A stretch of 64,000 bases of DNA from Mucilaginibacter sp. (GCF_041663085.1 NZ_JBAZRC010000006.1:4586-68585), one strand, 5' to 3'; numbered from the stretch's first letter, positions 39,521 to 44,806 are shown. Notes: generated by a model not told the origin, from the letters alone. Translations and numbers: made by a program.

Positions 39521-39534
39521 TATTATGGGTTTGG

Positions 39535-39615
39535 TTCCCCTTTTGAGAGGGGTTAGGGGTGTGTTTGCCGATGTGCAAAATACCCGCCCTGTAATGGTGA
39601 GCCTGTTGAACCACC
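39535..39615 (-). repeat. composite repeat ('cccctctcaaRagggg/ttaggggtgtg' + 'ggtgagcctgtYgaacc'), left inverted copy
   Basis: Its reverse complement aligns with 44008-44086. The two conserved blocks match at 27/28 nt ('ttgagaggggttaggggtgtgtt') and 26/28 nt ('cgccctgtWatggtgagcctgtYgaacc'). Confidence 0.8.
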
Positions 39616-40020
39616 TTGTCCCATTTTGGAAACGGGACAGATGGGACAAACGGAACGCATTGATAATGAGCGTATTATTACTGACAATATCTTGTCAGTA
39701 GTTCAATAAAAGCTTTGCGGTTTTGCTTTTAAATACTCATATACAGCATTTTATAAAATTGGCATTTTGTTCCATTTTTTAGAAATGGGACAAAACGGGG
39801 CAGGGCTGAAATTTTGTCCGGCTTTCCCGGGAATAAGCCGGTACAAAGCCAACAAAACAGCATTTTTTTCGCCTTTTTTCGGCCTCAGTTCGGCCTGTTT
39901 AGGCGGCAAGGGTAGCCGTAAATAAAAAGGTATTTTTTATATTAAATTACTGATTTATAGCCAATTAAGAATTTCAGGCTTGTTCCGTTTTTTCCCGAAT
40001 GGAACGAAAATGGAACAGGC
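39616..40020. repeat. three dispersed copies of a roughly 40-nt hairpin + phased GGRACR motif in ORF-free AT-rich spacer
   Basis: Copy A 39616-39657: arms ttgtcccat/atgggacaa, with GGGACA, GGGACA, GGAACG starting 9 nt apart. Copy B 39767-39802: arms ttgttccattt/aaatgggacaa, with GGGACA and GGGGCA 10 nt apart. Copy C 39979-40019: arms gttccgtt/aatggaac, with GGAACG and GGAACA 11 nt apart. Confidence 0.7.
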
Positions 40021-40169
40021 TTTTGTAAGCCGGATGCTCAGATTTATGGAGTGGCTTATGTGGTGTTTAATGCTGCTATCGGGTTAGTGAAATTGGCCTG
40101 TTTTTATGTGCCTGGAAATGATTGTTTACTAAGTAGAAAGGCACGTTTGCGCCAACTGGGAATATTATA

Positions 40170-43100
40170 CTAAACGTCTTTTTCCGGTTTTTTCGTTTTA
40201 TACTTAGCCATGAGATTACTCTTATCTTCCTTTGAATAACCTTTCGCTTTTATAAGAATATCGCCTATCATATTTAAATATTTTAAGTCAGAATCTGGAT
40301 TTTTTGAACGAATGTTGTAATAGTTCATTATTTTAATAAAACTCATATCTAAAATATATTTTTTGGTAGTATTTTTTATATACTCATCCAAAACATCAAA
40401 ATAATTGTGACCTTTTACATCTGCATATAAAAAAACCGAGAGGAATTTTTCAAAATCTGATATTCTATTATCAGATTTATCCTCTTGAATTTTTCTATAA
40501 AGCGTTTGTGATAATTTTTGGGTACCCATGTTATCATTCATTAGTGCTTGGTGATACCAAGGTAAAAACTGTAAAATTTGAATTTGTTCTTCTTTTTCAT
40601 TATCTGGTATCAATTTATTTTCGATGAGCTGCGAAACAAAGATTTTGTAGAAAATTGCAAAATAGATCGAATTATCTAAAATACTTTTTAATGAATTAAG
40701 TTTTAGATTTTGCTCCTCAACTTCTTCACTGTTTTTTAAGACCTTTAAAGACAATATAAAACTTTTAGCTATTGCATCCGGTGCTGTATCTTTTGCTTTT
40801 TTTTGAATCCCATTTTCTGTCTTTTGAGATAAAAGTTTTGCATCGTCCATGTTAATAAGATCTTCCTCCGTAGCCTTGTAATCAGAAACAAGACTTGTGA
40901 CTTCGTTCTTTGGGATTTTTATTTTAGAAACTGATTGTTTAAAAAAATCGTCTACCGAGTGACCGAGAGCCCTAATTTTCTCTTTAATTTCTTTAAATTC
41001 AGCACTTGACCTCTCAACTATTAACTTCAATATATCAACATCGTCTCTATTTAACCCCGTAAAATAATCTATTTCGTTTATAAATTTTAGATAATTAGCC
41101 TCATCTAATACTTCGCTTTTAAATTTTGGATCAAATCCCATTTTTTTAACTAAAAAGTATTCTAAAAAACAAGTGAATCTAAATCTAATGGAATTATCTT
41201 CTTTAATAAAAATTCCGGAGTCAATTAGTTCAGCTAAAATTTTTTCGACGTTATAAGAAAAGTCTTTTTTCTTTAAGTAAGAGTTGATAAATTGAAAAAT
41301 ATTGACGTGAGTATCTGAGTAATTTTCACCATCTTCTTTTAACATTTTATACGCAATTTCTGAAAGTAGCCGTACCTTATTTTGATAATCAAAAGTCTCT
41401 GATAAAATACCCGATTTAGAATGTTTATTTAATAACTTTTCTATAAATGTTTCGATTAAAGTAGAGTTATTAATAGGCTTGTAATTTTGTTGTTTTTCGA
41501 TAATCCAAAGAAACATGGAGACAGTAAAGGGGGTTCTGGGCAAAGACAAAGCCAAAAATCCATTAATTAGAGTTTCTACTTTCTGAGGCTTATCAATTAA
41601 ATCTTTATCTTTAAACCACTTAGTTGTAAGTTCTCTTATCTGCTTTGATTGAAAATCTTTTATGTTAATATTATTGAATTTAAATTTATCGAGTGAAGTA
41701 TAATGCTCTGGGATTTCACCAGCATACAAAATATTATAAGTAGCAATTATTTTTAACTTGGGATATTCTGCAGCCAAATCATATAATTGTTTTATTTTTA
41801 ATAAATCGATAAAATCATTTGATGCTTTTAAATTGTCAATAAGCAATAGGATAGGATGTGTATCTAAAATTGCTTTTGTCGCTTCTTTTGATACAAGTAA
41901 ATAGTCTCTGATGTTAGAAATTAGATCTGAAGATATTTTTGAAAACTCAACATACACCGGTATATAATTCGCATTATTTAACGGATTTAAGCATTCGTGT
42001 ATAAGTTTATCCAACAGAATTGTTTTACCCGATTCTTTAGTGCCAAAGAGTAAATAATTTTCTTTGTTTTTTAATAATGTGTTTAGGTCTTCCACAACCT
42101 CTTCTTTATCGCTATTAATTGATGCTTTAAGAGCTAATTTTGGTTGAACAAATAATTCTATTAAACTTTTAGGCGCATCAGTATCTGTGCTGTATGTCAA
42201 CATGTGCATATCCATTTTACAGATGTGCTCTTCATTAATGGTTTTTATTAAACTTTGTCTTTCTATTTCCTTTTCAATTTCTTCGGACTTCGGCAAATCT
42301 AAAATCCATAACCCATCTTTTCCCATAGCCGTATTTATACTAAAAGCTGAATTCGGGAAGGTATACTCATAAAATTTTATAAAAATTTTTGATTCCAAAA
42401 AATTTAAATCAATAGTTGAAAAGCCATTAGAATATTTTTTGTAGTCTGTATTTATGTTTGCCGTTAAAGTCCCGGGAGCGATTAGTGTTAGCAATTTACC
42501 CTGCGGTTCAATTATATACCTATTGCTTGCGCTATGAACATGACCGCAAAGCATCATATCAAATTCGGATTGTAATAATTTCTCACTAATCAATTTATCT
42601 GAGTCAAATAATTGATCGGTATAATGGTGCATAACCGCTATTCTGTAATCACAATCCTTCAGATAATCAATCCCATTTATTAATTGATCTTCACCTAACA
42701 ATAAATTTCCCTTATCTGTGTCACCATAACATCTCCAAGAAGAATTAAAAGATATTATACCAATTTTTTTATTGTCAAACTTGTATTTAAACCCAGATTC
42801 AAAAAAAGAGACATATAAATTTTCTGAGGGAGTATATAATACATCTAAAAAGTCTTTGTAAGGCTTCATTCTGAGTGCACCCGACATGTCTCCGCCATTA
42901 CGTATTTTTTTTATAAAATCATTTACTTTAACAGAACTCTTTAATATATTTAAGCACCCTGCCTCTGTTATTTCTGTATCAAGGTTTCTAACTGCATCGT
43001 GATTTCCCGGACAAATAATAAATTTATCATCTCCTATATTTAGTTTACTACATATCTTTCTTATCACATTATCATAAAATGATAGAAACGCTTGTTCTGG

Positions 43101-43277
43101 AGAGTTAAAAGATTTCCCCCCTTGGTCTATTAAATCCCCCGAAAAAACAACGAGATCGACCTGCTGTTCATTATTTATTTTTTCAATCGAATTTAGGAAA
43201 GGTTGAATGGTAAATAACCCATCCTTAATCAGAGTATTATTATCAAGATGAAAATCAGAAAAATGTAGTAATCTCAT
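40170..43277 (-). CDS. metallophosphoesterase - STAND/NACHT-like P-loop NTPase - helical C-terminal domain fusion (candidate NLR-like defence protein)
   Basis: 1035-codon ORF of about 20-37% G+C. Metallophosphoesterase motifs: SDFH (aa 7-10), GDLID (47-51), GNHD (91-94), VMHH (215-218), GHVH (245-248). Walker A GTKESGKT (aa 412-419, nt 42021-42044) and Walker B ILLLID (476-481). NACHT-like 'LPRTPFTVSMFLW' and 'FRFTCFLEYFLV'. Confidence 0.85.
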   Translation of the reverse strand: MRLLHFSDFHLDNNTLIKDGLFTIQPFLNSIEKINNEQQVDLVVFSGDLIDQGGKSFNSPEQAFLSFYDNVIRKICSKLNIGDDKFIICPGNHDAVRNLDTEITEAGCLNILKSSVKVNDFIKKIRNGGDMSGALRMKPYKDFLDVLYTPSENLYVSFFESGFKYKFDNKKIGIISFNSSWRCYGDTDKGNLLLGEDQLINGIDYLKDCDYRIAVMHHYTDQLFDSDKLISEKLLQSEFDMMLCGHVHSASNRYIIEPQGKLLTLIAPGTLTANINTDYKKYSNGFSTIDLNFLESKIFIKFYEYTFPNSAFSINTAMGKDGLWILDLPKSEEIEKEIERQSLIKTINEEHICKMDMHMLTYSTDTDAPKSLIELFVQPKLALKASINSDKEEVVEDLNTLLKNKENYLLFGTKESGKTILLDKLIHECLNPLNNANYIPVYVEFSKISSDLISNIRDYLLVSKEATKAILDTHPILLLIDNLKASNDFIDLLKIKQLYDLAAEYPKLKIIATYNILYAGEIPEHYTSLDKFKFNNINIKDFQSKQIRELTTKWFKDKDLIDKPQKVETLINGFLALSLPRTPFTVSMFLWIIEKQQNYKPINNSTLIETFIEKLLNKHSKSGILSETFDYQNKVRLLSEIAYKMLKEDGENYSDTHVNIFQFINSYLKKKDFSYNVEKILAELIDSGIFIKEDNSIRFRFTCFLEYFLVKKMGFDPKFKSEVLDEANYLKFINEIDYFTGLNRDDVDILKLIVERSSAEFKEIKEKIRALGHSVDDFFKQSVSKIKIPKNEVTSLVSDYKATEEDLINMDDAKLLSQKTENGIQKKAKDTAPDAIAKSFILSLKVLKNSEEVEEQNLKLNSLKSILDNSIYFAIFYKIFVSQLIENKLIPDNEKEEQIQILQFLPWYHQALMNDNMGTQKLSQTLYRKIQEDKSDNRISDFEKFLSVFLYADVKGHNYFDVLDEYIKNTTKKYILDMSFIKIMNYYNIRSKNPDSDLKYLNMIGDILIKAKGYSKEDKSNLMAKYKTKKPEKDV

Positions 43278-43305
43278 TATTATGTTTTAAAGAAGTTTTA
43301 AAGCA

Positions 43306-43336
43306 TAAATTTATTAATAACAGCCTCTGTTAACAA
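43306..43336 (-). promoter_or_regulatory. candidate Bacteroidetes-type promoter of the fusion gene
   Basis: On the minus strand: TTG (43336-43334), 20 nt spacer, then TAAATTTA (43313-43306; consensus TAnnTTTG). The -7 box ends 28 nt upstream of the ATG. Confidence 0.3.
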
Positions 43337-43619
43337 TACGTAAAAATACCTGATTTTCAATTAATTATAGATTAAAACCCGCCTACCAACCCCACCCCAA
43401 ATAAACCCCGGCAATATAAATACAGCCGAAACCGCATATTGGGGCAAGTCGTGTTCTTCCGTTATAATTAAATATTGCTGCAGTTAAAACATTACCTAAA
43501 AGTAGATAATTGCCAAATAGCTGTGTTTCTGCGTATTATTCCGGGTTGGTCCGTTTTTCTTATTTTAATTAGTCTCTCCACCGCTGGCGCACGCGTGCCG
43601 CGTGTGCTTAATAAACGGT

Positions 43620-43838
43620 GTCATTTCGAACGAACAAGGGGTGGGTTGCGACAGGGCGAGAGGAGAAATCCTGTTCATTATGCAAAGTTTGCCGCCTGTC
43701 ATTCTAACAAGATTTATCTGCGATGAGCTCGCTACGGTCGGTTCTCCCCGTACCTCGTTCGAAATGACAGGGTGGTGAGAATGGTTGCAAACAAAGCCCT
43801 CTGTCCACCATGTCCGCACCCCTAAGCGGACGGACAAG
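43620..43838. repeat. composite repeat: 'gtcatttcgaacgaa...ttcgaaatgac' palindrome variant + 'tgtccaccatgtccgcac..gcggacggaca' hairpin
   Basis: Arms 'gtcatttcgaacgaac' (43620-) and 'cgttcgaaatgac' (-43768). Segment 43797-43838 is the inverted counterpart of 36763-36800. Confidence 0.75.
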
Positions 43839-44007: not shown

Positions 44008-44086
44008 ATGGTTCGACAGGCTCACCATAACAGGGCGGTGATGCATGGCGGCTAACACACCCCTAACCCCTCTCAAGAGGGGAATA
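44008..44086 (+). repeat. composite repeat, right inverted copy of 39535-39615
   Basis: 'atggttcgacaggctcaccataacagggcggtg....aacacacccctaacccctctcaagaggggaata'. Confidence 0.8.
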
Positions 44087-44221
44087 AAAGCCGCTCTTCG
44101 CACCCGCACCACCCCCGCAAACAACGTGCAGCTATATTTAATTCGCACATTCTACCTTTATACTATTAATTAACCATACCTTGTATATGGTAACAACGTT
44201 GTTATTCAAATCCGTTCCTTT

Positions 44222-44706
44222 ATGTTACAGCCTGTAAGTTTTGCCACGCGCAAAAAAATATTCATCGAATATTTAAACCTTGTTTATAGTAACAAAAGCT
44301 ATTTAAAGTCGGTTTTTTTAGAGATGCGCGAACTGGCCACCAACCCCACCCTGCTATTGGCTATTGACGAAACCGGCGCCGATAACCTGAGCCAGATAGA
44401 TAACATTTACGCCATGTTTGGCTCAATTAACGAGCATATTACCGAAAGGCATATTATTGCGGCTAAAGCCATGAACCTGGAAGCCTACAGCGCGGCCATA
44501 AACGTTACGCGCTTGCCATTGAGCGCGACTGTGCCATACTTTTTTACCTGCAAAGTATAGAAGCCATAGATGCCCTGTACTTTAAAACCCTGCAGGGCAT
44601 GGCCAAAGGCCTGCATTACGATTATATGAACCTGCAATACCCGTATGATATTGCCATGGATAACCAAAGCCTGCTGTTTGATATCCACACCGAAATGGTG
44701 GCGTAG
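44222..44706 (+). pseudogene. hypothetical helical protein (possibly ferritin-like DUF892/YciE-type), apparently frameshifted
   Basis: The 112-codon ORF (44222-44560) ends shortly after a T6 run. A second frame, open from 44467 to the stop at 44704-44706, reads '..RYALAIERDCAILFYLQSIEAIDALYFKTLQGMAKGL..HTEMVA' and has no start codon of its own until late. Together they give about 160 aa. Confidence 0.45.
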
Positions 44707-44773: not shown

Positions 44774-44806
44774 AAGCACACCCCCAACCCCTCTCAAGAG
44801 GGGAAT
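44774..44806 (+). repeat. solo copy of the 'acacccc.aacccctctcaagaggggaata' hairpin repeat
   Basis: Near-identical to 44054-44086 in the same orientation. Confidence 0.8.

Follow-up and report, generated by a model that had tools for sequence, protein, structure and literature searches.

DS-8 is a single Escherichia coli protein of about 1014 amino acids (WP_032203427.1) that joins a metallophosphatase domain to a NACHT domain and was reported in the DefensePredictor study (Science 2026; PMC13092281). It lowers phage plating, and the substitutions D52A, N84A and K375A each abolish defence (PMC13092281). Similarity of its phosphatase domain to SMPDL3A and SMPDL3B was reported from HHpred and structural comparisons, and because of the similarity to SMPDL3A, the authors favour a cyclic nucleotide as the substrate (PMC13092281). 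Here, we describe a gene on the minus strand of a 64,000-nucleotide stretch of DNA from Mucilaginibacter sp. (NZ_JBAZRC010000006.1:4586-68585), which we call the window and whose positions are counted from its first letter. The gene lies at positions 40170 to 43277 of the window. Like DS-8, its product is a single protein in which an N-terminal metallophosphatase is followed by a NACHT-type NTPase and in which counterparts of the residues essential for defence by DS-8 are kept. The hosts differ, in that DS-8 comes from Enterobacteria whereas the window protein comes from the Bacteroidota. The window protein belongs, as a divergent member from the Bacteroidota, to the PDC-S60 / DS-8-like metallophosphoesterase-STAND family.

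The same arrangement of effector, STAND NTPase and C-terminal sensor in one gene is found in the Avs (AVAST) and bacterial NACHT (bNACHT) proteins, and Avs4 (8dgf) is among the fold matches of the window protein. Calcineurin-like phosphoesterases have been listed among the effector domains of bNACHT proteins (Kibby et al. preprint) and of bacterial NACHT/STAND proteins (Kaur et al. 2021). The window protein differs from Avs and bNACHT proteins in its sensor domain, for which fold searches give no relative among solved sensors, TPR-like or other. PADLOC-DB includes AVAST models. At E ≤1, the PADLOC models that match the window protein are PDC-S60 and a marginal mad8, and no Avs model is among them.

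A calcineurin-like phosphoesterase also serves as the catalytic antiphage effector of PUA-Cal-HAD (also called DS-9), in which the Calcineurin-CE effector turns (d)NDP into (d)NMP and splits NAD+ into NMN and AMP (10.64898/2026.01.15.699771). PUA-Cal-HAD is activated via higher-order assembly. It differs from the window protein in having an m6-dAMP-binding PUA domain as its sensor, in the place of a STAND NTPase, and in that it consists of two genes, with a HAD phosphatase needed to deplete dNTPs. SbcD/Mre11 and YydB share the two-metal phosphoesterase fold and motifs with the N-terminus of the window protein, through matches that are weak and partial.

The closest described entry is PDC-S60, a single-gene candidate system in PADLOC-DB v2.0.0 (2023). 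It is a purely bioinformatic candidate to which no function or mechanism is attached, and a literature search found no paper that names it. The window protein fits its model PDLC05051 end to end, with residues 1-1006 aligned to model positions 1-997 of 1027 (E 5.1e-138, 460 bits). PDLC05051 is also matched near full length by 6 of the 9 distant family members that were sampled. For DS-8, the comparison was made with the NCBIfam model DS8_antiphage (NF053861) and with the 399 N-terminal residues of the protein that are printed in Table S8 of PMC13092281. A profile of sampled distant members retrieved Firmicutes and other relatives and not DS-8, and a search with these 399 residues retrieved truncated relatives only. 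The model aligns its positions 1-682 of 994 to residues 5-711 of the window protein (E 8.5e-54), so that the profile homology spans the phosphoesterase, NTPase and winged-helix modules and ends at residue 711; at this sensitivity, it does not extend into the C-terminal sensor region. A BLASTP alignment with DS-8 residues 1-399 places D52 of DS-8 opposite D48 of the window protein, and N84 opposite N92. K375 of DS-8 (GDEFCGKST) corresponds to K418 by its position in the Walker A motif, in a stretch that BLASTP did not align. A second PDC-S60 model, PDLC05050, matches the DS-8 clade better than PDLC05051 does. Because DS-8 relatives match both PDC-S60 models, albeit partially, DS-8 and the window protein share one candidate-system label.

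These comparisons bear on an earlier prediction made from this stretch of DNA (the original prediction), which knew of no experimentally characterised system with this combination of effector and NTPase. PADLOC lists the architecture as PDC-S60, and DS-8 has been validated with catalytic and P-loop mutants. The claim of novelty fails because PDC-S60, DS-8 and the earlier listings of such effectors precede it, and the functional reading stands. The original prediction had itself foreseen this outcome as costing the novelty claim alone. The architecture is already catalogued as PDC-S60 and validated as DS-8, and the gene adds a member to this family and no new principle.

The N-terminal domain of the window protein is a calcineurin-like metallophosphoesterase. 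A search with Pfam Metallophos (PF00149), which the original prediction had proposed as a check, aligns residues 1-249 to model positions 1-190 of 191 with a score of 58.4 bits, above the cutoff of 21.5 (E 1.7e-15). All five metal-binding and catalytic motifs are present at the residues originally listed: D8/H10, G47-D48..D51, G91-N92-H93-D94, H217/H218 and G245-H246-x-H248. The site is intact, as had been claimed. Conservation was judged in a family alignment of 62 members, in which a residue was called conserved if it is invariant or present in at least 90% of the sequences. By this measure, D8, H10, G47, D48, G91-N92-H93-D94, H217, H218 and G245-H246-x-H248 are all conserved. The AlphaFold2 model of residues 1-330 is a beta-sandwich phosphoesterase. 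In Foldseek searches of the PDB, its top match is Bacillus subtilis YydB (9a6c_B; E 2.7e-13, template modelling (TM) score by target 0.53), for which we found no functional literature, and a purple acid phosphatase (5uq6) is also matched (E 6.5e-6, TM score by target 0.57). The nearest PDB entries by sequence, all of them weak matches, are Lmo2642 (the best), SbcD, Mre11, Rv0805, Icc and GpdQ. Lmo2642, Rv0805, Icc and GpdQ-type enzymes are cyclic-nucleotide or phosphodiester hydrolases.

The central part of the protein is a STAND NTPase. Its Walker A motif, GTKESGKT, and the Walker B aspartate, D481, are conserved and lie where the original prediction had placed them, and the conversion of residues 412-419 to nucleotides 42021-42044 holds. 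Pfam nSTAND_NTPase4 (PF24406) matches residues 662-709 (nucleotides 41151-41294) with 48.7 bits against a cutoff of 27, whereas Pfam NACHT (PF05729), which had been proposed as a check, gives no match to the window protein at E up to 1. A minority of relatives have precomputed PF05729 matches. Because PF05729 does not match the window protein, its best label is "STAND, NACHT-like (nSTAND4 type)". The segment RFRFTCFLEYFLV, which had been singled out as winged-helix-like, falls within the nSTAND_NTPase4 match, and the topology of residues 631-715 in the AlphaFold2 model is helix-helix-helix-beta-hairpin. The AlphaFold2 model of the whole protein, built on the alignment of 62 family members, is confident (predicted local distance difference test (pLDDT) 88.5, predicted TM score (pTM) 0.74). 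Fold searches with the centre of the protein return NLRC4, NAIP5, NOD2, NLRP3 and Avs4 (E 1e-9 to 1e-7, probability 1.0), and those with the P-loop domain, which include ORC/Cdc6, span E values of 1e-9 to 1e-5. The whole-chain TM scores against NLR and NACHT proteins are low, at 0.2-0.3, as is expected of multidomain proteins. The structure prediction and fold search that had been suggested thus yield both NLR/Avs and metallophosphoesterase matches.

The third part of the protein, residues 716-1035, had been described as probably helical and as belonging to no nameable repeat family. The prediction is indeed all-helical, and when these residues are modelled alone the confidence is high (pLDDT 84.4, pTM 0.81). 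The domain has no Pfam family and no PDB sequence match, and its best Foldseek E values are 0.11 (PDB) and 0.24 (viral models); the TM scores are below 0.3, and none of the matches is significant. It is as constrained as the NTPase, with a proportion of nonsynonymous differences (pN) of 0.079 relative to the copy in Mucilaginibacter aquariorum.

The reading frame at this locus had been described as uninterrupted, and an open reading frame (ORF) scan confirms 1035 codons with an ATG start and no internal stop. The protein is identical to a gene product annotated "MAG: metallophosphoesterase [Mucilaginibacter sp.]". The five hand counts of G+C in the original prediction are exact on recounting (30.0, 20.0 and 36.7% inside the gene; 53.3 and 50.0% in the flanks), and the compositional foreignness drawn from them is borne out over the whole gene. 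Its G+C content is 29.1%, compared with a mean of 44.2% (standard deviation 2.3, minimum 40.5) for the remaining 3.1-kb stretches of the window, which places it about 6.5 standard deviations below that mean. G+C at third codon positions is 0.251 in the gene versus 0.54-0.66 in five neighbours. The AT-rich block, at approximately 40100-43500, consists of the gene and 100-200 nucleotides on either side. The statement that this block holds no other ORF of at least 60 codons is right save for one antisense ORF of 61 codons inside the gene (42187..42372, plus strand), which is almost certainly spurious. The gene is a lone AT-rich insertion that was acquired horizontally.

The gene is under purifying selection. 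Three Mucilaginibacter copies, with protein identities of 84% and 74%, occupy three different chromosomal sites, and their DNA similarity extends from the start codon to about 16 nucleotides from the stop codon. Among them, the proportion of synonymous differences (pS) is 0.75-0.81, which is saturated, and pN is 0.09-0.16, with all three domains constrained. The saturated pS and low pN indicate that the gene is functional and that none of the Mucilaginibacter copies was recently transferred from another. We rejected the possibility that the gene is a pseudogene or relic, given that its motifs are intact and that pN lies far below pS. Judged from its sequence, the intact, putative antiphage gene is almost certainly functional. 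We also considered conserved synteny with M. aquariorum, where the copy likewise lies near a B12-binding/mutase gene, and rejected it, since the neighbours differ and the DNA similarity is confined to the gene. At the M. aquariorum locus (L002, 2339-6262), we observed a 1307-residue MeaB/methylmalonyl-CoA-mutase fusion with DUF559 and a faint MTES_1575 match between two MM_CoA_mutase matches; this stretch could be an inserted Vsr-like endonuclease domain.

Low G+C content is a property of the family. In each host examined, the G+C content of the gene is 26-33%, with flanks of 0.30-0.50 (the window and loci L002, L003, L005, L010, L012 and L019-L027), and the gene is more AT-rich than the flanks around it. 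The persistence of this AT-richness despite saturated synonymous sites suggests either repeated acquisition from donors of low G+C content or selection for AT-rich coding. Such selection, for example to silence a toxic protein or limit its translation, could account for a G+C content of about 29% in hosts whose own is 45-50%.

An exhaustive family profile search returned 4959 proteins at E ≤1e-30, and at least 150 clusters at 50% identity have full-length matches above 630 bits. The named hosts are mostly Bacteroidota, and also include Fibrobacter, a WOR-3 metagenome-assembled genome, Bacillota (Bacillus plasmids, Sporomusa and Clostridiales) and Sphingomonas. Family searches found no relatives in phage records. 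A genome-wide census made with two peptide patterns gave at least 10 loci, a number to be read as a lower bound and not as a distribution. The family is associated with mobile elements and defence genes. One member lies within a CTnDOT-type conjugative transposon (an integrative and conjugative element, ICE), one in an ICE-like region next to a Type I restriction-modification (RM) system, DUF3800 and a transposase, and one at the edge of an ICE; others are on Bacillus and Sphingomonas plasmids. putAbiC lies directly 3' of one member, and among the genes nearby in eight further genomes are SoFic, Type IIG RM, bSEFIR, McrB-like and Schlafen-type helicase genes, resolvases and TnpB-like genes. 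No partner gene is conserved across the contexts of the family members examined. The neighbourhood comparison that had been proposed as a check therefore gives ICEs, plasmids and RM, Abi, SoFic and bSEFIR genes nearby, with some copies standing alone. A copy recorded on a "Klebsiella grimontii" plasmid was considered as an enterobacterial bridge and rejected, being frameshifted and set in Bacillus-like surroundings. In that record (L016; CP079755.1, pNY3A, 330-349 kb), the neighbours are of the YueH family and the M4 and M23 peptidases, and the record may be misassigned or chimeric.

Five family variants of approximately 1210-1250 amino acids (P0151, P0163, P0176, P0178 and P0198) carry an extra N-terminal SMEK domain. 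SMEK is, according to published descriptions, a nuclease domain found with short Argonaute systems. The five variants have substitutions at all metal-binding residues of the phosphoesterase and keep the Walker A and B motifs and the C-terminal domain. This looks like the replacement of one effector by another, with the old phosphoesterase decayed to a pseudo-enzyme scaffold. Fusions of the intact phosphoesterase domain to the nSTAND6 and nSTAND1 clades of STAND proteins and to unrelated architectures of 1400 residues also occur. The SMEK swap and the fusions to other STAND clades point to the phosphoesterase being an exchangeable effector module.

We consider it likely that the gene encodes a horizontally acquired, single-protein, NLR-like antiphage receptor of the PDC-S60 family that is distantly homologous to DS-8 and whose phosphoesterase, when triggered by the sensor, hydrolyses small nucleotides or NAD+. 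By analogy with Avs, bNACHT and DS-8, the C-terminal helical domain would sense a phage-derived trigger, and the NTPase module would then switch and oligomerise. The oligomerised NTPase might in turn activate the N-terminal two-metal phosphoesterase. In the most speculative step, which is modelled on Calcineurin-CE, the effector would hydrolyse the phosphoanhydride or phosphodiester bonds of NAD+ or of (d)NDP/(d)NTP-type substrates, and depletion of these essential metabolites could abort the infection. We favour a small-nucleotide substrate because Calcineurin-CE of PUA-Cal-HAD, which acts on (d)NDP and NAD+, is the sole biochemically characterised defence effector of this kind. We also favour it because the N-terminus matches the DS-9A model slightly better (E 1.7e-10) than it matches SbcD (E 5e-7). 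The broader idea of the original prediction, an NLR-like single-gene conflict protein with a metallophosphoesterase effector, draws support from the profiles, the folds, the contexts and the homology to DS-8.

Several considerations weigh against this account, in which the substrate is the weakest step. The match to NCBIfam DS9_1_antiphage, our surrogate for a profile of the Calcineurin-CE clade, covers residues 2-186, or half of the domain, and scores 40.3 bits against a cutoff of 420. PUA-Cal requires its HAD partner to deplete dNTPs, and none is encoded beside the window gene. The preference of the DS-8 authors is for a cyclic nucleotide (PMC13092281), and PADLOC labels a related effector model "Endonuclease". 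The relationship to DS-8 is itself remote: the window protein is not an equivalog, scoring 182.7 bits against a cutoff of 790 (nine other family members score 92-218 bits), and the identity over the phosphoesterase domain is 21% (E 2e-7). Since the C-terminal domain has no detectable relatives, trigger sensing by it is pure analogy. The window copy stands alone among housekeeping genes, outside any defence island, and several relatives are likewise lone insertions amid metabolic genes. Finally, the window protein and its subfamily are known from sequence and predicted structure.

Two alternatives keep the defence function and change the substrate. An Mre11/SbcD-like nuclease that degrades phage or host DNA or RNA would fit with SbcD and Mre11 being among the nearest solved structures by sequence, with the match of NCBIfam SbcD models to the N-terminal ~100 residues and with the match of other family members' phosphoesterase domains to the PADLOC effector model "Endonuclease" (E ~1e-24). 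The replacement by a SMEK nuclease in some variants would also fit an interchangeable, nucleic-acid-degrading output. We nevertheless think a nuclease unlikely. The SbcD/Mre11 matches are weak (E 1e-6 to 1e-3), cover motifs I-III only and fall far below the cutoffs (TIGR00619, 27.7 vs 77.65 bits; PRK10966, 29.1 vs 450 bits), there is no SMC-like (SbcC/Rad50) neighbour near the gene, the "Endonuclease" model of PADLOC gives no match to the window protein itself at E up to 1, and the one biochemically characterised defence effector of this type has nucleotides and NAD+ as its substrates. A phosphoesterase that degrades a cyclic nucleotide or oligonucleotide signal, as proposed for DS-8, seems to us highly improbable. 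The breakdown of a second messenger would ordinarily weaken an immune response and not carry it out, the vicinity of the gene encodes no cyclase or CBASS-like partner, SMPDL3A is absent from the top 50 Foldseek matches of the window protein, and even for DS-8 the cyclic nucleotide is a proposal (PMC13092281). On the other side is the resemblance of the DS-8 phosphatase to SMPDL3A/3B (PMC13092281), human SMPDL3A being a cGAMP phosphodiesterase. The order of the PDB sequence matches, Lmo2642 first and then the Rv0805, Icc and GpdQ-type phosphodiesterases, speaks for it as well.

The least probable account, to which we give very little credence, is that the protein has no antiphage role and is either mobile-element cargo (for ICE or plasmid competition, exclusion or addiction) or a housekeeping signalling NTPase-phosphatase. 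Many family members do reside on ICEs and plasmids, and several copies, including that of the window, lie alone amid metabolic genes. Against this, the homologue DS-8 directly lowers phage plating (PMC13092281), and several members adjoin RM, Abi, SoFic or bSEFIR genes. A housekeeping role is further opposed by the patchy distribution, the differing insertion sites and the foreign composition. The favoured account, an NLR-like antiphage receptor with a nucleotide- or NAD+-hydrolysing output, also has a stronger form, in which the Bacteroidota-centred PDLC05051 subfamily is mechanistically distinct from DS-8 and combines a new class of NLR sensor with a HAD-independent, nucleotide/NAD+-depleting phosphoesterase. 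The sensor would be the conserved C-terminal domain of 320 residues, and its trigger could come, for instance, from phages of the Bacteroidota. We regard this form as doubtful, though conceivable.

Coordinates of the gene, its domains and motifs, and the flanking features in the window.
Feature	Position	Strand	Basis or remarks
Complete gene	40170..43277	-	1035 aa + stop: metallophosphoesterase / STAND (NACHT-like) NTPase / helical C-terminal domain; PDC-S60 member
Calcineurin-like metallophosphoesterase domain, putative effector, aa 1-330	42288..43277	-	Pfam PF00149, motifs, Foldseek
Linker helix (aa 332-356) and short beta elements before the NTPase, aa 331-395	42093..42287	-	Secondary structure of the model
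P-loop nucleotide-binding domain of the STAND NTPase, aa 396-540	41658..42092	-	Weak Pfam AAA_14, AAA_7 and nSTAND6; Foldseek
Walker A GTKESGKT, aa 412-419	42021..42044	-	G412, G417, K418, T419 conserved
Walker B ILLLID, aa 476-481	41835..41852	-	D481 conserved in at least 90%; on model strand 476-483
Helical and winged-helix domains of the STAND module, aa 541-715	41133..41657	-	PF24406; model topology
Family-specific all-alpha C-terminal domain, presumed sensor, aa 716-1035	40173..41132	-	Separate model
Left copy of ~85-nt inverted repeat	39533..39614	+	Brackets the gene; part dispersed
Right copy of ~85-nt inverted repeat	44009..44092	-	84-93% complementary to the left copy
Weak terminator-like hairpin, candidate	40140..40153	-	17 nt past the stop codon; consensus scan

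The neighbours of the gene in the window encode a deaminase, SdpI, a tRNA-binding protein, DinB, an FAD oxidoreductase, a B12-binding protein, an enoyl-CoA hydratase, an outer-membrane protein and a sigma-54 regulator. The 64-kb window contains no other PADLOC system, the remaining matches being generic housekeeping paralogues, and the flanks of the gene within the window contain no integrase or transposase. A tRNA-linked island was rejected, as there is no tRNA from 30 to 52 kb. An ORF of 112 residues (44222-44560, plus strand), which lies between the island and the B12-binding gene, has no Pfam match and may be spurious or a gene fragment.

The ~85-nucleotide repeat has just two full copies in the 64 kb, inverted and on either side of the AT-rich gene. 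Part of it, CCCCTCTTGAGAGGGGTTAGGGGTG, is a dispersed repeat whose third copy is at 44779-44803. The M. aquariorum homologue has one copy of the ~85-nucleotide repeat 0.8 kb downstream, with its orientation to the gene unchanged. The repeats could be either an element resembling repetitive extragenic palindromes (REP) or miniature inverted-repeat transposable elements (MITE) that accumulates in long intergenic regions, or a remnant of the delivery vehicle. We treat them as REP/MITE-like and not as proven transposon termini, because part of the repeat is dispersed and kindred repeats fill the M. aquariorum flanks. Upstream of the gene, the segment 43560-43970 is G+C-rich and packed with small repeats, including a perfect 15-nucleotide inverted repeat (43619-43633 / 43755-43769). 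Short segments of it are 93-97% identical to repeats flanking the M. aquariorum copy (L002, 8175-8212 and 13200-13433), and these small repeats appear to be dispersed Mucilaginibacter intergenic repeats.

The 3' flank of the gene, 39590-40170 (580 nucleotides), has no ORF of at least 60 codons. It contains three palindromic hairpins with common arms (TTGTYCC...GGRACA), at 39616-39639, 39767-39793 and, as a variant, 39978-40018. The rest of the window holds no further instance of this pattern (0.06 would be expected by chance), and among the other loci it occurs in L001 alone, which is a second assembly of the window sequence. The minus-strand RNA fold of 39590-40170 has a z score of -5.95, and an Rfam search of the gene flanks gave nothing meaningful. 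Scans for sigma-70 promoters and terminators gave counts equal to those in shuffled sequence; the promoter scan used the sigma-70 consensus, and Bacteroidota promoters fall outside the scope of the tool. The terminator-like hairpin downstream of the stop codon is only a candidate because the count for the region is 4 versus 3.3 in shuffles.

If the favoured account is confirmed, it would extend metallophosphatase-NACHT (DS-8) immunity, which is validated but mechanistically unsolved, into the Bacteroidota, a phylum that matters in ecology and medicine and in which phage defence has received little study. Confirmation would also supply a divergent homologue that folds well and has its active site intact, with which the questions of substrate and sensor could be approached. 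The SMEK variants offer a natural experiment showing effector swaps on the PDC-S60 chassis. Should the stronger and more doubtful form prove true, the PDLC05051 subfamily would be the first case of an NLR-type receptor coupled to a Calcineurin-CE-like output that depletes metabolites.

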